Origin: a virus
Lineage: Duplodnaviria > Heunggongvirae > Uroviricota > Caudoviricetes
Virus record (IMG/VR): IMGVR_UViG_2571042636_000008
Coordinates: 1-43,701 of that record
Reading direction: 5' to 3' (one strand)
DNA length: 43,701 nucleotides
Shown here piece by piece: positions 1 through 25,405 of this stretch. Position numbers and translations under genes: made by a program. Under the pieces are notes generated by a model. It searched no databases, had not been told where the DNA came from, and saw only the letters and a list, made by a program, of their open reading frames with translations. How positions within the stretch are numbered: position 1 is the first letter of the stretch; every line of letters begins with the position of its first letter.

Positions 1-1260
1 TCATATTCCTATCGCCATGCCATGGGGCATGGATGGGGCAAAGTCCGATAATTTCTGGTTCAACATAGCAATCTGATCGCTGCTGCTGTCGGCCATCCAG
101 GCGCCGTAAACATTGAAAACCATCTGGGCGCTGGAGTGTCCCATCTGGCTGGCAATGAAACTCGGATTGGCCCCGGCAGACAGCGACCAGCAGGCGTAAG
201 TGTGTCTCGACTGATACGCCTTGCGGTGCCTTAAACCTGACCGTTTAAGCGCCGCATCCCATGAGTCACCAACTGAATCGGCTTTGTACAGGTAACCTAC
301 GCTGCCACTTTTTTTAACCAACTGAGGATTGAACACAAATGTACAGTCGTGAATGACCGTTCGGCCATACTCCCGCAGTTGTACCTCAACCTGATACTGC
401 CTGCCTAACCTGGTCATTTCCGCCTGGTTCCTCAAAGCGTCAATGGCTGGCTTGATCAGGTGAACGACCCTGTCGGTACCGGCTTCGGTTTTTGGTAGAG
501 TGAAATCACCGAGTTTCGTATAATTCCGGCGTATGGTCATCGTTCCAGTTTTCAGATCTATGTCTTCCCATGCGAGGGATACCAGCTCACCGTGACGTAA
601 TCCTGTGTATACCGCAATTGACCACAGGTTTTTCGTTTGCTGATGCTTGCAGGCATCAATGAAGCGAACGAATTCATCACGTGTGAGCGGATCTGGTTCT
701 ATCCTGGCCCTCTTTAGCGGCTTGATGCCGTTAAACGGGTTTTCACTCACATAGCCATTATCAACAGCGAACTGAAACATACCCGCGATCGTGGTCATGT
801 AGTAGTTTACCGTCACCACACTCAACCCTTTATCCCCCGCCAGCATATCCTTCCTGATATAGAGAAGCTCTTCTCTTGTCACAGACGAAACCAGCTTATT
901 CGCGCCAACCCTCGGCAGCATGCTTCTCACCACCGATTCATACCTGTTTATGGCATTAGCGCAGATCTCCATCCGTTTAAGCTCAAGCCATTTTTCAGAC
1001 AGATCTTTTACGGTGATATCTTTCTTCCCGATGCCGAAAGTTTTCAGATTTGGCGAGTTGGGGAATTGGGCCGCATAGTCAAAGGTCCCCATGCGGATAG
1101 CGAAACAAACTGACGTTCTCAGCTCCCCGGCCACCTTCCTGTTTTTAGCGGTGTCAGGGACACCGAGGTTTTCCCTGACACGCTTACCTTTAAAAATGAA
1201 CCATATGCGGAGTGACTTTCCGTGGTTCTCAACGCCCGTTGGGTATGATTCTTTACTCAT
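1..1260 (-). CDS. int: Tyrosine-type site-specific integrase
   Basis: 419-aa ORF; C-terminal catalytic region with R...HxxR...Y pattern (LRHRKAYQSRHTYA...VYG) typical of lambda-family integrases; stop codon at window positions 1-3. Confidence 0.9.
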   Translation of the reverse strand: MSKESYPTGVENHGKSLRIWFIFKGKRVRENLGVPDTAKNRKVAGELRTSVCFAIRMGTFDYAAQFPNSPNLKTFGIGKKDITVKDLSEKWLELKRMEICANAINRYESVVRSMLPRVGANKLVSSVTREELLYIRKDMLAGDKGLSVVTVNYYMTTIAGMFQFAVDNGYVSENPFNGIKPLKRARIEPDPLTRDEFVRFIDACKHQQTKNLWSIAVYTGLRHGELVSLAWEDIDLKTGTMTIRRNYTKLGDFTLPKTEAGTDRVVHLIKPAIDALRNQAEMTRLGRQYQVEVQLREYGRTVIHDCTFVFNPQLVKKSGSVGYLYKADSVGDSWDAALKRSGLRHRKAYQSRHTYACWSLSAGANPSFIASQMGHSSAQMVFNVYGAWMADSSSDQIAMLNQKLSDFAPSMPHGMAIGI

Positions 1261-7423: not shown

Positions 7424-8119
7424 TTAAAGTAAAACTGAATACCAGAAAACCCTTCCTATGATTTCAACATCTTGCTCCATTGCCTCTTCGTCCTCTCGGT
7501 TGAAGCTGCGTATCACAAGAATTCCACCTGGCTTACGGTATAACTGCTTTATCCGCTTTAGCTTTTCATCTCCGGCACCTGGTTGCGCGATAGCATATAG
7601 TTTTCCATCAATGATCCGTTTGTTATTGGTGTCTACTGCAACCGTTGTTCCATCTGGAATAACAGGCTCCATACTGTCTCCAGTGGCTGGGAAGCAGATA
7701 ACTCCAGAACCATCGCTGTTAGCGCCAACTCTTCGTAAAGTTGCTTTGGAGAACCTCAACTTAAAGCCATTGTGATCATCGCTTTGAATGCGACCATCCC
7801 CGCAGGCAAATTCGATATCTTTCAAAAAAGGCACTTCTACTTCGCCCTCACTTAGTGGGGTATTTTTGTCCCATGAATCGACTTGGGACCATTCTTTTTC
7901 GGGAGGAATTTCACTGGTCATTTCATGCTCCCCAGTTAAGAGCCAGCTAACTGAGCACTTTAAAGCTGCTGCCAACTCCGGCAAGTATCTTGGGCGCTTA
8001 GTCCTTCCGTCTTCGAGTTGCTGTATGGCCTGCTGAGAGGTTTTAGCTAGTGAAGCCAGCTCCGCTTGCGTCAATGATAGCTCCGCACGCCTAAGTTTTA
8101 CTCTGTCCGCAATATTCAT
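7424..8119 (-). CDS. cI: cI-type repressor (N-terminal HTH + C-terminal S24 LexA-like autopeptidase domain)
   Basis: HTH region [33 protein letters not shown]; S24 motifs GDSM and KLKRIK; start at ATG 8119 with GAGGTGGA RBS; the track's longer N-terminal extension rejected. Confidence 0.9.
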
Positions 8120-8159
8120 ATCCACCTCATAAACCGATCCCTCATGCTTACAAGAAATA

Positions 8160-8217
8160 AGGTATTTGACAAACAAGTTTGTTTGACAATAAAATACAAA
8201 TAACCTTGTAAAGGAGG
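8160..8217. promoter_or_regulatory. OR/PR region: operators and rightward promoter for cro
   Basis: Direct TTTGACAA repeats; -35 TTGACA (8166-8171) with 18-bp spacer to TAAAAT (8190-8195); operator-like TACAAATAACCTTGTA; AAGGAGG RBS before cro. Confidence 0.6.
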
Positions 8218-8221
8218 CATC

Positions 8222-8443
8222 ATGGAAACTCTTTCTGACCGCGTTAAAAAACGCCGCAATGAACTTAATTTGACCCAAGCCGGTCTTGCTGAGCTTTCTG
8301 GAACCAAACAACAGACTATTCAGCAAGTTGAATCCGGATTAACAAAACGCCCACGCAAGCTCATTGAGCTGGCGACTGCCCTTCAGTGCGAGCCACGCTG
8401 GCTTCTTTTTGGAGAGCAAGGGAATAAAACCAATGCCGCCTAA
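8222..8443 (+). CDS. cro: Cro-like HTH (XRE-family) regulator
   Basis: 73 aa; [26 protein letters not shown]; divergent from cI across the operator region. Confidence 0.8.
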
Positions 8444-8789: not shown

Positions 8790-9644
8790 ATGGCAAATAC
8801 TGCCGAAGTAATCAATTTCCCTGTGCCTGTCGTGGCACTACAGGAGCTGCGCGTGGCAGATCTCGACGATGGGTTTACGCGCATCGCCAATGAGCTCCTT
8901 GAAGCTGTCATGCGTGCGGGTCTGTCGCAGCATCAGCTTTTGGTGTTCATGGCTGTCATGCGCAAAACATACGGCTTCAACAAGAAATCTGACTGGGTCA
9001 GTAACGAGCAGCTCTCGGAGCTGACCGGCATTCTCCCGCATAAGTGCTCAGCTGCAAAAAGCGTCCTGGTTAAGCGGGGGATATTAACTCAAACCGGTCG
9101 TGTTATCGGGATTAATAAAACGGTCAGCGAATGGTCATCTTTACCCGTAAAAGGTAAAGAAAAAAAACCTTACCTGAAAAAGGTAACATTACCCGAATCA
9201 GGTAAGAAAAGTTTACCCGAATCAGGTAACGCCTATTACCCGAATCAGGTAAACACAAAAGACAAACATACAAAAGACAATAAAGACAATATTAATAACC
9301 CCCCTAAATCCCCCCGGGCGGTTTCGTTCGATGCGTTAGCTGTTCAGTTGCCTGACTGGCTTTCTGCAGAAATCTGGTCGTCATGGGTGGCATATCGTCG
9401 CGACCTGAAAAAGCCGATCAAGTCTCAGCAGACGGTCACCCAGGCTATCAACCTGCTGGACCGCTGCAGACTGAACGGTTACGCGCCCGAAGAAATTATC
9501 AACCGCAGCATCGCCAATGGCTGGCAAGGCCTGTTTGAGCCAAATGGTGCCAAGCCTCAACCAAGTCAACAGGTGCGAGTTGCCGAAAATTTCGCAGGGA
9601 AGGATTACGGGCAGACTGAAATCCCATCATGGGCGAGGGACTGA
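8790..9644 (+). CDS. Replication initiator, lambda O-like
   Basis: 284 aa in O position; in-gene iteron array followed by an A-rich stretch as in lambda ori. Confidence 0.75.
   Translation: MANTAEVINFPVPVVALQELRVADLDDGFTRIANELLEAVMRAGLSQHQLLVFMAVMRKTYGFNKKSDWVSNEQLSELTGILPHKCSAAKSVLVKRGILTQTGRVIGINKTVSEWSSLPVKGKEKKPYLKKVTLPESGKKSLPESGNAYYPNQVNTKDKHTKDNKDNINNPPKSPRAVSFDALAVQLPDWLSAEIWSSWVAYRRDLKKPIKSQQTVTQAINLLDRCRLNGYAPEEIINRSIANGWQGLFEPNGAKPQPSQQVRVAENFAGKDYGQTEIPSWARD
9141..9252. repeat. Replication-origin iterons (five ~17-bp TTACCCGAATCAGGTAA-type repeats) inside the O gene
   Basis: Copies at 9141-9157, 9170-9186, 9189-9205, 9213-9229, 9236-9252, followed by an A-rich tract 9253-9300. 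Confidence 0.75.
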
Positions 9645-15963: not shown

Positions 15964-16100
15964 GCCGTGACGTTATCGAACGCATCCGCGACCGCTGGCA
16001 AAAGCTTCGCCTCCTGCGTAGCCGCGGCACCGTGCTGGTCGACTACAAAATATTACGCAATTTCGTCCGTATCTATAAGCGCCTGGGAGAAGCAGCATGA
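15960..16100 (+). CDS. Small basic ORF (46 aa) translationally coupled between rusA and Q
   Basis: ATG 15960 overlaps rusA stop (ATGA); its stop overlaps the Q start (ATGA); [46 protein letters not shown]; below the track's size cut-off. Confidence 0.35.
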
Positions 16101-16786
16101 CAGCTCAATACTTGGAATTTGTTCGCCAGCAGCTGATAGTGGCCACCGCCGATCTGAGTGGTGCGACGAAAGGGCAACTGGTAGCTTTTGCAGAGAACGC
16201 GCAATTTACCGCTACGGCGCGCAGCCGTGGCCGGAAGAAGGTGTATAGCGAGGTGAAGCAAAAAATGGTTAACCCGGATGGACCGCCGATGAGCGGCAGC
16301 CAGTCCCGCGCTAAGGGTTCCTCAATCGCTCTCGTTCTGCCCGTTGAATACTCGACAGCCAGCTGGCGCCGCGCCCTCCTGTCGCTGGAAGACCACCAGA
16401 AATCCTGGTTGCTGTGGAACTACAGCGACAATATCCGCTTTGAGTATCAGGTAGCGATAACACAGTGGGCATGGGAAGAATTCCGTGATCAACTCGGCGC
16501 TAAGAAAGTGGCCGGCAAGACGATGGAGCGGCTGAAGAAACTGATATGGCTGGCGGCACAGGACGTGAAAGCAGAGCTGGCGGGTAAGTATGTATATCAG
16601 CACCAGGACCTTGCAGCCCTGTGTGGCGTTAAGCCTGATAACTGGTGCCATAACTACGCTGATTACTGGCGGGCTATGTGCGCCATTTTTAAGCGGCTTG
16701 ATAGCGACTCTCTTCTCTGTGCTGTGAGAACACGATCACAACAAAAAGCGACTTTTTCGCAGCAGGGTCTTGCAAAAGTCAATTAA
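16097..16786 (+). CDS. Late-gene antiterminator Q-like protein
   Basis: 229-aa ORF in Q position, followed by promoter/terminator-rich gap, tRNAs and lysis genes; family from memory. Confidence 0.7.
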   Translation: MTAQYLEFVRQQLIVATADLSGATKGQLVAFAENAQFTATARSRGRKKVYSEVKQKMVNPDGPPMSGSQSRAKGSSIALVLPVEYSTASWRRALLSLEDHQKSWLLWNYSDNIRFEYQVAITQWAWEEFRDQLGAKKVAGKTMERLKKLIWLAAQDVKAELAGKYVYQHQDLAALCGVKPDNWCHNYADYWRAMCAIFKRLDSDSLLCAVRTRSQQKATFSQQGLAKVN

Positions 16787-16874
16787 ATACGTCATATTTG
16801 AGTCTACTTTGATATGCTGCCTTAACTTTAAGTGGCGGCATGAAGATGATAGTCATATACCAGTTTGTAAAATT

Positions 16875-16902
16875 AGCCTCGGCAATCCGCCGGGGCTTTT
16901 TT
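16875..16902 (+). terminator. Rho-independent terminator (candidate tR' for the short PR' transcript)
   Basis: AGCCTCGGC-aatcc-GCCGGGGCT followed by TTTTTT. Confidence 0.55.
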
Positions 16903-17347
16903 ATGCCTGCGATCCGGTCAGGGCTCTTGGGTAGAGACGTGCTGCACGACACGTCAAAGCCCTTCCGCGCAGAGCCCTGAACCAGATTGAAGTTACTCAG
17001 CAATAAGAAAACTGCATGTCATCATTTGCTTATATCTTATTGACCAGAAAATTAACATGTTGTTAATCTATTCGTGTGGTGAATCCCCCTATGCGGAGGG
17101 GCGACCAGTCACTTACAGTGATCTGTAAATGCAGCGCGGGCCATGTCGACTGGGACATGCTCACCGGGAGGCACCCGGCACCATAATGCAATGCTACATA
17201 AGCTATTTGATAGTGGGGTTGCCGTTTCGGCTTCTCCAGCTATGTTTAAAAGGTAGTAACGGAAAACGAGCGCTCTCCTGGTAAATCGGAAGCTCGGACT
17301 ATTAGGTGCGCCTCGAACCGTTGAAGAATCAGTATTTCCTACCTTCT

Positions 17348-17374
17348 GCCCGCCCCTCTGAGCGGGCTTTTTTT
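17348..17374 (+). terminator. Rho-independent terminator
   Basis: GCCCGC-ccctctga-GCGGGC followed by TTTTTTT. Confidence 0.55.
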
Positions 17375-17407
17375 CGCCTAATTCAGGCAAAACCATAAAG
17401 CATTAAG

Positions 17408-17432
17408 GGCTGCGCTATTTCGCGGCCTTTTT
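17408..17432 (+). terminator. Rho-independent terminator immediately upstream of tRNA-Asn
   Basis: GGCTGCG-ctattt-CGCGGCC followed by TTTTT. Confidence 0.45.
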
Positions 17433-17439
17433 CATTTCA

Positions 17440-17514
17440 GGGTCAGAAGCACAGCGGTTGTGCGTTCGGCTGTTAACCGAATGGTCGAAGGTTCGAATCC
17501 TTCCTGTCCCGCCA
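17440..17514 (+). tRNA. tRNA-Asn (anticodon GTT), phage-encoded
   Basis: Hand-folded cloverleaf: D stem GCAC/GTGC, anticodon stem TTCGG/CCGAA with loop CTGTTAA, T arm GAAGG-TTCGAAT-CCTTC, 3' CCA; one T:T mismatch in acceptor stem and A at position 8. Confidence 0.6.
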
Positions 17515-17519
17515 AATTA

Positions 17520-17596
17520 GCGCCATTAGCTCAACCGGAGAGAGCAATAGCCTTCTAAGCTATCGGTTTCAGGTTCGAGTCCTGAATGGTGCACCA
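17520..17596 (+). tRNA. tRNA-Arg (anticodon TCT)
   Basis: Hand-folded cloverleaf: acceptor GCGCCAT/ATGGTGC, D stem GCTC/GAGC, anticodon loop CTTCTAA, T arm TCAGG-TTCGAGT-CCTGA, CCA; resembles E. coli argU from memory. Confidence 0.8.
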
Positions 17597-17730
17597 GATA
17601 ATGGCCTGACCTGATAACGGGTTCATACCCCAACTTATCAGGGGCGTTGCTGCAACAGCGTCACAGGCCGCCAGACCCAGCTAGGGTATTTTCGGTCATC
17701 ACCGACATTGCTATTACCCTCATGCTTATT

Positions 17731-17759
17731 GCCTGCCTAACCGCAGGCTTTTTTATTTT
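17731..17759 (+). terminator. Rho-independent terminator downstream of the tRNAs
   Basis: GCCTGC-ctaacc-GCAGGC followed by TTTTTTATTTT. Confidence 0.55.
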
Positions 17760-17865
17760 CAGGGTCGCGGGAATCACCCTCGACGCTTTGTTGGTAAATC
17801 AGCCCGACGGCCCTGAACCTTTTACTGACTACAGATAGCACCCCGAACATTATCGGAGGTGAGAG

Positions 17866-18180
17866 ATGCAACGTATGAACCCAACCGATGGTCACAATCT
17901 GCCTTACTGGTGGTCAGCCTTGCTTGGTATCTTTTCCGTCCTGAGTCTGCAGGATTATGTCTTCATCATTGGCGCCCTGATCTCTGCCTTCTTCACAATC
18001 AAGACGTATTACGCAAAGCGCAAGGAAGAGCGAGAGCGACTGGATGAAGAGAAAAAACGCACGCAGCTGTTGGCCAGTTATCTGGCTGATGTCTCCGCAA
18101 AGCCTGGAAGTGACCGCCCGGCTTCAGCCGAAGTGGTAACCGAGGCCTTGAAGCGGATCGCAAGTGATACACAGGGGTGA
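17866..18180 (+). CDS. Holin (pinholin-like, two TM helices)
   Basis: GGAGGTGAGAG RBS; hydrophobic segments [14 protein letters not shown] and [15 protein letters not shown] then charged C-terminus; first gene of lysis cassette, overlaps endolysin start. Confidence 0.65.
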
Positions 18181-23724: not shown

Positions 23725-24147
23725 ATGAAGCAAAACATACATAAGCTTAACGGGTTAGAATTCACCCATGAACGCGATTTTATCAACGGGCAATGGGTAT
23801 ATTCTTGGTATTTTAGACCCCTAGAGCAATCTGAATGGTGCCCATTCTCGCTGCCAACGGGGAAAACAAGAAAATCTGATATTGAGAATTTCTTAAAAAA
23901 TTGTGAAGAAGCTACCAAGTTCTATTTAGAGTGGTTAAGAAATGCCTCTGATGTGGAAGGTGCTGAACGCTATTTATTATCCGCAAAACAAGCTTGGGAA
24001 AGGATATCTAGCCCGGACTGGGGAGGGCGTGGAAGTAATCCAAACAAGGATGCCAGGAGGGTGCAACAAGCAAGAGAAACTCTCGAATCGGCAAAAGTAA
24101 AGCTTGAGAAAGCCAAGATATTACGAGAAAGATTAAATAGTAACTAA
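23725..24147 (+). CDS. Moron-encoded hypothetical protein (AT-rich insert between head genes)
   Basis: 140 aa; AGGGATAGCA RBS; visibly lower GC than flanks; own terminator downstream; Trp-rich N-terminus, basic helical C-terminus. Confidence 0.55.
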   Translation: MKQNIHKLNGLEFTHERDFINGQWVYSWYFRPLEQSEWCPFSLPTGKTRKSDIENFLKNCEEATKFYLEWLRNASDVEGAERYLLSAKQAWERISSPDWGGRGSNPNKDARRVQQARETLESAKVKLEKAKILRERLNSN

Positions 24148-24153
24148 CAACGA

Positions 24154-24179
24154 GGCCGCTATTCAGCGGCCTTTTCTTT
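24154..24179 (+). terminator. Rho-independent terminator after the moron gene
   Basis: GGCCGCT-attc-AGCGGCC followed by TTTTCTTT. Confidence 0.55.
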
Positions 24180-24202: not shown

Positions 24203-25405
24203 ATGAAATATTTCTTTAAAACCCGCCTGGGTAATACCCGCTTTCAACTTGCTGATGGGTCAGTCCTGTTTAAGGACGTCCCGATCGCAAGGACTGGTGA
24301 GCAGGAGTACGACGCCACAGAGCGGCCTGAGCTTGTCCCAAACGACAGAGGGAAAGTCATCGTACGCCGGATGCCAGAAGAGGTGTTCAGCGAGCGAGCC
24401 ATGGCGTCATTCGAAGGCATGGCAGTTACTATCGGCCATCCGCGAGATTTTGACGGGCAGATCATCTTTGTTACCCCTGACAACTGGCGCCAGCTGGCTC
24501 ACGGGCACATCCAGAACGTACGACGTGGCACGGACGATAAAACCGATCTGCTGATGGCTGATGTCATCGTTAAAACCCCGGAAGCCCTGCAGGCCATTGA
24601 TGATGGTGATGATGAGGTCAGCTGCGGGTACGACGCCGATTACGAACAAATTTCACCTGGTCTCGCAAAGCAATCTGCGATTACCGCTAACCATCTGGCC
24701 CTTGTCCCTAACGGGCGGGCCGGTTTCCGTTGTGCAATAGGGGATTCTATGCCAAGCACTACTAAAAACTGGTTTACCCGGCTCCTGAAGGCCCGTAAAA
24801 CCGGGGACGCTGCCGAAATGGCAAGTCTCATTGATAACCCGCCTGATGATGTCACGGGCGATAACGACGTATCGACCTCTATGACACCTGGCGGAGTGGT
24901 CATCAACCTTGCGCCGCAAAATCCGCTTCCCGGCCCGGCATTGCCTGGTACCGGCGATGCCGAGGAAGAAATTCCTGCATGGGGTAAGGCGCTGATTGAG
25001 GCGGTGGCCAAACTCACGCCTGCGGCAACTGCTCCTGGAACCGGCGATGCCGAGGACGAAGAGGAGAAAAAGGAAGAAGAGGGTAAGGTTACCGGCGACG
25101 CCGCTTACCGTGCCGATCTGATTCAGCCAGGCATCCAGTTGCCAGAGAAGGCGAAGCCGACAGCATTCAAGCGTCAGGTGCTCGCCTCTGCCGATCAATC
25201 TCTGGTGCGCTCTATTGTCGGTGATGCCGATATCAGCAAGCTGAAAAAAGCCACGGTAGATATGGCTTTCACGGCTGTTTCTGAGCTGGCGAAAAACCGC
25301 AATACCAAAACCGTCGACAGCCTGCAAACGCAGACTGCCACCACTGTTAAAACCATTGCCGGTATGAATCAGGCCGCGCAGGAATTCTGGTCTAAACGAG
25401 GCTAA
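24203..25405 (+). CDS. Head scaffolding/prohead-maturation protein (DUF2213-like N-terminus, acidic repeat C-terminus)
   Basis: 400 aa; acidic repeats PGTGDAEEE.../[17 protein letters not shown] typical of scaffolds; sits between MuF and capsid genes. Confidence 0.55.

Follow-up and report, generated by a model that had tools for sequence, protein, structure and literature searches.

A long-form STnc100-family small RNA gene among RNA genes between Q and the lysis genes of a lambda-like Klebsiella phage

Introduction

In phage lambda, the antiterminator gene Q is followed by the late promoter pR', the short 6S leader and the intrinsic terminator tR', with a -10-like element early in the transcribed region and the lysis genes downstream. 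StxS, the terminated pR' transcript of Shiga toxin (Stx) phages, belongs to the same arrangement. The site 3' of the Q-antiterminated PR' is a moron site, and convergent Hfq-bound small RNAs (sRNAs) were described there in eight Sakai prophages (Tree et al., PMC4104026; PMC7873438). STnc100 is an sRNA of prophages that is present in multiple copies, eleven in the case of Escherichia coli O157 EDL933; these copies are transcribed, and one was confirmed by northern blotting (PMC5331693). In Stx2 phages, a copy is found 75 nt 3' of stx2B (PMC12370729). STnc100 overlaps the Hfq-crosslinked sRNA EcOnc27/sRNA103 (PMC12711010; PMC7873438), and a shared ancestry has been proposed with PasD of enteropathogenic E. 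coli (EPEC) (bioRxiv 10.64898/2026.05.13.724894), an Hfq-dependent sRNA with many mRNA partners in RIL-seq (PMC8550237). Here we analyse the gap of 1079 bases (positions 16787-17865) between Q and the holin gene in a 43,701-nt stretch of Caudoviricetes DNA (the whole of IMG/VR record IMGVR_UViG_2571042636_000008, hereafter the window), and report that it carries an STnc100-family sRNA gene of a long form, together with two tRNA genes and four predicted intrinsic terminators.

The layout of the gap is ordinary for lambdoid prophages, and the sRNA is in a described family. What is new is modest: the promoter and the ends of the sRNA are defined, and a long form specific to Klebsiella, set apart by an additional conserved domain, is recognized. 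Taken as a whole, the gap is probably a late-operon leader that holds RNA genes, and not a protein 'moron'.

As in lambda, a promoter, a short leader and then an intrinsic terminator come directly after Q, here as predicted elements. Unlike that of lambda, the window Q belongs to another family (PF06323, N15/VP882 type), the leader would be only ~60-100 nt long, and three more terminators stand before the first late coding sequence (CDS). The window sRNA shares with its STnc100 relatives (RF02076; EcOnc27/sRNA103 of E. coli O157; PasD1/PasD2 of EPEC) a full-length match to the family model, a multi-helix core, the place in the late leader between Q or cargo and the lysis genes, the orientation, and a predicted promoter and intrinsic terminator of its own. 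It differs from them in a length of ~300 nt instead of ~170-200, in a hairpin without a U-tract at the short-form terminator site followed by an extra ~100-nt domain outside the Rfam model, in the absence of a convergent partner sRNA, and in a non-homologous 3' region, where the seeds of the relatives are placed. The moron site of Stx phages (tRNAs ileZ-argN-argO, stxAB and the AsxR/EcOnc27 dyad) is the same insertion hot spot and likewise combines tRNAs with an STnc100-type sRNA. In contrast to it, the window has neither a toxin nor other protein cargo, no anti-sRNA, and tRNAs for Asn and Arg, not Ile, Arg and Arg, placed downstream and not upstream of the sRNA. Its tRNAs are nothing unusual among the clusters of temperate enterobacterial phages, with which they share canonical form, encoded CCA and the likely late co-transcription. 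tRNA-Arg(UCU) is the commonest tRNA of such clusters; only the set differs (Asn-Arg here, Asn-Phe-Thr-Arg in phages Mulock and ST101-KPC2phi6.1).

Results

An STnc100-family gene with a predicted promoter and terminator of its own

Every RNA gene, promoter, hairpin and terminator described in the gap lies on the plus strand. A scan of the whole window with Rfam at gathering thresholds returned three matches only, the two tRNAs and STnc100 (RF02076), the latter at 17047-17241 with 79.7 bits against a cut-off of 47 (E 1.5e-15) and over model positions 1-206 of 206. The copy in Klebsiella phage 2b LV-2017 scores 80.4 bits. Judged from the sequence, 17040-17347 encodes an sRNA of the known STnc100 family. 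The initial annotation had described this stretch as GC-rich and possibly encoding an sRNA. The sRNA is upheld by the model match, but the overall G+C content of the stretch, 49%, is below the 52.5% of the window, and 60% is reached only in the 5' core, 17076-17190. The limits proposed there also need adjustment, as 17040 is the start of a promoter -35 and not of RNA, while the RNA runs through its terminator to ~17375.

The predicted sigma-70 promoter of the sRNA occupies 17040-17069 and consists of a -35 TTGACC (17040-17045), an 18-nt spacer, a TG (17061-17062) and a -10 TAATCT (17064-17069). We scanned IMG/VR with the invariant segment of helix P2 of the RNA, which gave 120 contigs (L001-L120), and aligned 22 diverse long-form copies (alignment A1). 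TTGAC and TAnnnT, with TG before it, are kept in the 22 copies, and the 18-nt spacer varies freely; as read from this alignment, kept hexamers with a variable spacer are the signature of an extended -10 sigma-70 promoter. The short E. coli and Salmonella forms have the same promoter geometry (TTGCCT-18-TGtTAAAAA), and an RpoD ChIP-exo signal has been reported at the STnc100 copies of Salmonella LT2 (PMC10794520). The predicted start, 17075-17077, is the first base pair of helix P1.

At the 3' end, an intrinsic terminator closes every copy. In the window this is terminator 2 (17348-17375; scan 17348-17367; GCCCGCCCCTCTGAGCGGGC plus T7, tract TTTTTTTC; -11.3 kcal/mol), which gives an RNA of ~300 nt; the other long-form copies have a terminator at the same place with varied stems. 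The conserved promoter and terminator predict that the sRNA is transcribed as a discrete RNA in Klebsiella, and with a promoter of its own the cassette is expected to be transcribed in the lysogen without Q. The sRNA terminator carries 7 U, and by analogy with the relatives the window sRNA may act by Hfq-dependent base pairing. The Rfam models of AsxR and AgvB found no match in the window at the gathering threshold or at E<5, and the terminator scan found no minus-strand terminator facing the sRNA gene; the window thus does not show a convergent anti-sRNA dyad of the AsxR/AgvB type. The possibility that STnc100 is itself the pR' leader, like lambda 6S RNA or StxS, was rejected, because it lies downstream of stxB in Stx phages and because a separate promoter and terminator adjoins Q in the window.

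In GenBank, the sRNA is annotated in none of the matched phage records, and several have a 'hypothetical protein' there (e.g. MK448233.1, MK448235.1 and OR327748.1).

A multi-helix core and a Klebsiella long form

The STnc100 core, 17076-17184, is a multi-helix junction composed of P1 (GUGGUG/CACCAU), P2 (CCCCU/AGGGG, 17086-17101), the variable hairpins P3 and P4, and P5 (CCGGG/CCCGG). Over 22 distinct sequences of both forms, 99.4% of the 506 cells of its 23 pairs are paired, as compared to 43-57% for registers slid by 1-3 columns. Four pairs are changed on both sides, and the covariation score is 0.171 against 0.104 in shuffles. P3 and P4 keep their structure and not their sequence. P2 and P5 are invariant, and hence uninformative on covariation; the invariance of P2 is partly imposed by the search pattern (the first 28 nt), that of P5 is not. 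Conservation is far higher in the structured core than in the 3' tail.

Beyond the core, hairpin H6 (17210-17243) stands at the position of the short-form terminator, has no U-tract and corresponds to the final hairpin in the Rfam model. Transcription would run on past H6, which is followed by the 3' domain of the Klebsiella long form (17250-17345), a long irregular hairpin with an almost invariant tip at 17277-17306 (CCTGGTAAATCGGnAGCTCGGACTATTAGG). The long form, with its 3' domain marked by CCTGGTAAATCGGnAGCTCGGAC, is present in 52 of the 120 contigs, and the other 68 have the short form, in which the terminator lies ~150-165 nt after the P2 motif. Of 28 phage records matching a diverged long-form copy, 27 are from Klebsiella. 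Among species-representative genomes, the long form was found only in K. pneumoniae ATCC 13883 and in two tiny contigs labelled Mucilaginibacter and Streptomyces, which are probably contamination. Independent minimum-free-energy folds recovered the tip helix in 17 of the 22 divergent copies, and a flanking UAACGG/CCGUUR helix in three subgroups with differing middle-stem sequences; the modelled fold of the 3' domain is likely, not established.

Searched against other Rfam families, the 3' domain gave only sub-threshold matches, to the Trp and Leu leaders and to isrK, an Hfq-binding RNA of the Gifsy-1 prophage. The isrK match (17274-17372; 15.5 bits against a cut-off of 50, E 1.5) is probably driven by the terminator. 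The tRNA model had no match to the 3' domain or the flanking long hairpins even at E<5, and a tRNA or pseudo-tRNA was rejected for them; short similarities to tRNA-Asn (repeats D4 and I1) were judged to be chance. As for a phage target, a search of the window that allowed up to 3 mismatches found no further match to the tip 17277-17306.

The 3' arm of P2 and the 5' arm and loop of the terminator are complementary, 17096-17108 pairing with 17346-17358 at 11 of 13 positions. Across the family, the C/U-rich 5' arms and loops of the terminators (CCCCUCU, CGCCUCUCU, CGCUUCUCU) are complementary to the invariant P2 segment GGAGGGGCGAC. At 51%, their C content exceeds the 37% of 281 other compact terminators in these contigs, and their median duplex energy with the P2 segment is -14.2 kcal/mol, against -9.7 kcal/mol for those terminators, a comparison between related sequences whose p-value is not a true probability. 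This complementarity could be an anti-Shine-Dalgarno-like loop seed, a means of self-masking, or a by-product of composition.

A candidate pR' and four terminators

The candidate late promoter pR' (16770-16818) has a -35 TTGCAA (16770-16775) inside the end of Q, a -10 CATATT (16793-16798) at a spacing of 17 nt, and the block TGaTATGCT at 16810-16818. In an alignment (A3) of the DNA 3' of five Q homologues (53-74% amino-acid identity) plus Mulock, the blocks TTGCAA, CATATT and TGnTATnnT are kept downstream of the Q homologues and the flanks diverge, which points to a promoter function, although the conservation of TTGCAA may reflect coding, as it lies inside Q. Sigma-dependent pause elements are known in lambda and phage 82, and TGnTATnnT at 16810-16818 could be such an element or a true extended -10. 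The short pR' transcript would carry a leader hairpin at 16814-16841 (ATGCTGCC...GGCGGCAT); the fold of 16800-16905 has a z score of -4.26, and PPompW/689R5 have TTTTGCC...GGCAAAA at the position of the leader hairpin.

The leader is followed by terminator 1 (16875-16902; scan 16875-16897), with a 9-bp GC-rich stem of -16.8 kcal/mol and then TTTTTTAT. A terminator of different sequence occupies this position in PPompW, 689R5, phiES15, RothC and Mulock. The order of Q stop, promoter, short leader and terminator is conserved among the Q homologues, which supports the label tR' for 16875-16902. The initial annotation had proposed tR' at these positions, and after every homologous Q examined we indeed find a promoter-like block and a terminator of unrelated sequence.

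Besides terminator 2 of the sRNA, two further sites lie upstream of the holin. Terminator 3 (17405-17436; scan 17405-17430) has a stem of -14.2 kcal/mol and then TTTTTCATTT, ends 4 nt before tRNA-Asn and is best seen as a back-up stop for the sRNA promoter. Terminator 4 (17731-17754; scan 17731-17748; -10.0 kcal/mol, then TTTTTTATTT) is the last stop ahead of the holin; its stem reads GCCCGATTTTTCGCGGGC in Mulock and GCCTGCCTAACCGCAGGC in the window, a compensatory change that keeps the stem. The four T runs are of 5-7 nt. The scan is permissive, with 6 sites against 3.1 +/- 1.5 in shuffles, so that support for the terminators comes from stem quality, the common strand and conservation in relatives, where terminators 1, 2 and 4 keep their position and change their sequence. 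All four intrinsic terminators of the initial annotation were recovered by the scan as plus-strand sites with a GC-rich hairpin and an immediate U-tract, and termination is predicted at each. The only promoter that the scan reported in the gap, ATGATA-16-TAAAAT (16846-16873), was discounted because transcription from it would begin inside the stem of terminator 1.

Two tRNA genes

Across the 43.7 kb of the window, ARAGORN predicts two tRNAs and no others, and both fall in the gap. tRNA-Asn(GTT), at 17440-17514, scores 63.9 bits with the Rfam tRNA model (RF00005; cut-off 29), encodes CCA after G73 and has one U:U mismatch in the acceptor stem; tRNA-Arg(TCT), at 17520-17596, which reads AGA, scores 67.5 bits with the same model and cut-off and encodes CCA after A73. 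The prediction program and the covariance model therefore agree with the initial annotation on both genes. Cloverleaf, anticodon loop, discriminator and CCA are those of bacterial tRNAs in both. The tRNA-Asn gene also occurs in related phages, in which tRNA arrays occupy the same place. A structured spacer with a three-helix fold (17603-17669; z score -3.45), conserved in Mulock, follows the tRNAs. With terminator 3 ending 4 nt upstream of tRNA-Asn and no evident promoter beyond that terminator, we expect transcription of the tRNAs to require Q-modified RNA polymerase that has read through.

In the record of phage 2b LV-2017, all three tRNAs are unannotated.

The sRNA cassette behaves as a moron

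In the contigs with callable flanking open reading frames (ORFs), the element lies downstream of Q or of post-Q cargo, and upstream of the holin or of an esterase-like ORF that precedes it. Four Q families occur upstream (PF06323, PF06530, PF03589 and DUF1133) and several holin families downstream. tRNAs are near the element in about one third of the contigs, and on the same strand wherever present. A 617-aa ORF lies downstream of the element in 26 contigs; we take it to be the nanS-p-type esterase described at that position in the Pas preprint. The nearest large upstream ORF is Stx2A (RIP domain) in 14 of the fetched contigs. The earlier remark that Stx phages have a toxin here and the window has none is consistent with these contigs and with the absence of a toxin from the gap.

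In ST101-KPC2phi6.1, Q is 98% identical and yet the sRNA is absent, and the same holds for Mulock, with nearly the same Q; both have the tRNAs only (Asn-Phe-Thr-Arg). Present or absent between phages with near-identical Q, the sRNA behaves as a moron. A long structured hairpin at 16912-16990 (inverted repeat I6; z score -4.24), which ends in ...CCCTGA-A-CCA-GATTGA, is identical in Mulock and phage 2b up to GATTGA, and the window, Mulock and 2b diverge right after CCAGATTGA (16982-16990). It therefore seems that 16991-17439, the cassette with the promoter, the sRNA and terminators 2 and 3, was inserted into a backbone like that of Mulock.

The 3' end of this hairpin resembles that of a tRNA; tRNA-Asn comes directly after GATTGA in Mulock and 2b, and the sRNA cassette stands there in the window. 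A second long hairpin at 17757-17819 (repeats D7 and I10; z score -4.03), conserved in Mulock, has the ends TCAGGG...GCCCTGAACC, as has 16912-16985. The twin hairpins could be processing signals, tRNA remnants or recombination junctions.

Between tR' and STnc100, phage 2b LV-2017 (L129, 1004-1500) has an extra tRNA-Asn and then ~430 nt of structured, unannotated non-coding DNA ending in a terminator, in which no Rfam family was found at the gathering threshold. Two same-strand STnc100 copies 1.8-2.2 kb apart occur in L062 (5017, 7250), L077 (1438, 3669) and L103 (1277, 3099), and a late leader can thus hold more than one STnc100.

The phage and the limits of the gap

The gene order across the window is lambdoid, and the phage is of the temperate lambda-like Klebsiella type. 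The 1079 bases of the gap are 94-96% identical to those of Klebsiella phages 2 LV-2017 and Kp4856-1, and Klebsiella accounts for 68 of the 76 phage records matching the gap sequence. The window begins with an integrase gene (1-1260, minus strand), followed by a gene for an S24/helix-turn-helix repressor (CI-like; 7424-8326, minus strand) and an O-type replication gene (8790-9644), next to which a DnaC-like loader is encoded. YbcO, RusA and Q precede the gap in that order, and the holin, a lysozyme and a spanin-like gene come after it. The Q gene (16097-16786, plus strand; Pfam PF06323, 267.7 bits) is of the N15/VP882/PY54 type and ends at the gap boundary; tblastn found homologues annotated as Q in 72 phage records, and a sequence search of the PDB found no homologue of Q. 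At the other boundary, a Shine-Dalgarno sequence GGAGG (17855-17859) precedes the holin gene, the first late CDS (17866-18180, plus strand; PHROG 1350, E 5e-34).

The longest ORFs of the gap (95, 74, 63, 54, 52, 51 and 46 aa) have no Pfam or PHROG match, in keeping with the initial annotation of about 1.1 kb after Q without a credible CDS. Close relatives are separated by 1-nt and 2-nt indels within gap ORFs.

Two further elements were observed elsewhere in the window. Within the O-type gene, 9140-9252 holds five copies of the 18-nt repeat TTACCCGAATCAGGTAA, partly palindromic and spaced by 19-29 nt, presumably the phage origin with its iterons. Between the late ORFs 23725-24147 and 24203-25405, a perfect GC-rich hairpin at 24152-24173 (GAGGCCGCTATTCAGCGGCCTT), flanked by an A-rich and a T-rich sequence, has the appearance of a bidirectional terminator within the structural-gene block.

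Discussion

From the family membership, the promoter, terminator and structure signals and the synteny, we infer expression, targets and Q dependence in this phage as follows. A constitutive pR', overlapping or following the end of Q, would give a short leader that halts at terminator 1, the putative tR', past which only Q-modified RNA polymerase would read through. About 140 nt beyond terminator 1, a self-contained cassette with its own sigma-70 promoter and terminator would produce the ~300-nt sRNA (17076-17375). The 5' 110 nt of this RNA form the conserved multi-helix scaffold, and the region from scaffold to terminator, which varies between lineages and has been expanded to a long hairpin in Klebsiella, is probably the part that recognizes targets. 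The tRNAs would mainly be cut from the Q-antiterminated late transcript, supplying tRNA-Arg(UCU) for AGA and an extra tRNA-Asn during virion production. In series, three terminators stand between the sRNA promoter and the holin and four between pR' and the holin; terminators 2, 3 and 4 would shield the lysis genes from transcription that starts at the sRNA promoter or leaks from pR'.

Several observations weigh against this account. The pR' hexamers are weak, 4/6 and 4/6, with the -35 within coding sequence. The Rfam model starts at 17047, 29 nt upstream of the predicted sRNA start at ~17076, and we read these 29 nt as promoter spacer. Conservation in the RNA peaks in the structured core, whereas base-pairing sRNAs usually conserve a single-stranded seed most. 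The lower stem of the 3' domain reaches only 59-77% column-wise pairing on the MAFFT alignment, a weakness that we ascribe to MAFFT losing the helix register between subgroups. The expression data come from relatives, from which expression in this phage and the Klebsiella copies is extrapolated. Hfq binding and targets likewise come from E. coli relatives, the 3' parts of which are non-homologous to the Klebsiella 3' domain. Finally, AGA occurs 6.8 times per 1000 codons in early genes and 4.0 times in late genes.

This last observation bears on the role of the tRNAs. An enrichment of AGA and AAC in the late genes, which the initial annotation put forward as a check, did not appear for AGA, and for Asn there is only a modest excess (46.9 per 1000 codons late, 38.8 early); AGG is at 6.8 early and 6.1 late. 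A late-specific codon rationale for tRNA-Arg is therefore unsupported. Phage tRNAs can counter tRNA-cleaving defences, and the main role of the tRNAs might be to make up for host tRNAs that anticodon nucleases or other defences directed at tRNAs cleave or deplete. This would concern only the tRNA part of the leader, is compatible with the scheme above, and we regard it as rather unlikely. Beside the lack of late AGA enrichment, it would fit the supply of tRNA-Asn, not a rare tRNA, and the changing sets at the same spot (Asn-Phe-Thr-Arg, Met-Lys-Arg, Met-Lys-Thr-Gly and Met-Arg); as the set changes between close relatives, defence evasion may be an additional role. The tRNA bodies also look unlike those of E. 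coli host tRNAs. However, the anticodon loops CUGUUAA and CUUCUAA match the host loops, so that escape by loop mutation is not evident. Moreover, AGA plus AGG amount to 10-14 per 1000 codons, presumably several-fold above enterobacterial host usage, which fits codon supply.

A second alternative concerns the mode of action of the sRNA, in which the invariant scaffold might serve to decoy, sponge or partner a conserved host or phage protein or another RNA, with the tail secondary, instead of Hfq-dependent pairing. P1, P2, their junction and P5 are invariant across Klebsiella, E. coli and Salmonella copies, the sequence-independent structure of P3 and P4 and the nearly fixed tip of the 3' domain point the same way, and AgvB and AsxR, neighbouring prophage sRNAs, are known sponges (PMC7873438). 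However, the relatives have been cross-linked to Hfq and recovered in RIL-seq chimeras with mRNAs (PMC7873438; PMC8550237), and the part of the invariance that the search pattern imposed on the first 28 nt does not count; we consider the alternative very unlikely.

It is equally doubtful that the core acts in cis on the late transcript, in processing or stability, as an insulator or as an aid to antitermination, with the sRNA as a by-product. Without exception the element lies in the leader of the late operon and has the same orientation, its core far outlasts the tail in conservation, and the adjoining spacers are strongly structured too. However, the element has a conserved promoter and terminator of its own and follows four unrelated Q families, and its relatives are discrete Hfq-bound RNAs in uninduced lysogens (PMC5331693; PMC7873438; PMC4104026). 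Since phages with near-identical Q and lysis modules lack it, it is not needed for late expression.

A small protein gene concealed in the gap, such as the 36-aa ORF 17076-17186 or the minus-strand 95-aa ORF 17109-17396, has next to no chance and is largely refuted already: despite open frames, the 'hypothetical protein' placed over the element in some GenBank records (including the minus-strand ORF) and ribosome footprints on some STnc100 copies in EDL933 (PMC5331693), the gap ORFs lack domain matches, the 36-aa frame is broken by a 1-nt deletion in contigs L003, L045 and L078 and stopped after 11 codons by an early TGA in all short forms, which shows it not to be coding, the 95-aa ORF is broken by 1-nt and 2-nt indels among close relatives, and the substitutions in the element follow a paired-helix pattern. 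A coding role for the sRNA element was rejected on these grounds. The first base of the 36-aa ORF is the predicted sRNA start, and its end is the exact end of helix P1.

Returning to the reading of the gap as a leader of RNA genes, we can now annotate the Klebsiella copies as genes for an STnc100-family sRNA, with a defined promoter, defined ends and an extra 3' domain. STnc100 is among the most abundant prophage sRNAs in enterobacteria, and is next to stx2 in E. coli O157, in which an association between variants and clinical outcome has been reported. The layout shows how a constitutive sRNA promoter can be tolerated 0.8 kb upstream of the holin, with three serial terminators in between.

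The long form separates the conserved part, the scaffold, from the lineage-specific part, the tail. One conjecture, which we think unlikely to be right as a whole, is that STnc100-type RNAs are modular, with a near-invariant 5' scaffold and exchangeable 3' tails. The scaffold would gate the 3' end of its own RNA, or else bind or imitate a conserved component of enterobacteria, and the Klebsiella tail would be a new structured domain of ~100 nt with an invariant 30-nt apical element. Given the complementarity between P2 and the terminator, the scaffold could hide or expose a seed located in the terminator loop, or it could inactivate the terminator. The K. pneumoniae long form, many copies of which are in prophages from carbapenem-resistant clinical lineages, provides a second system in which to search for the targets of this family.

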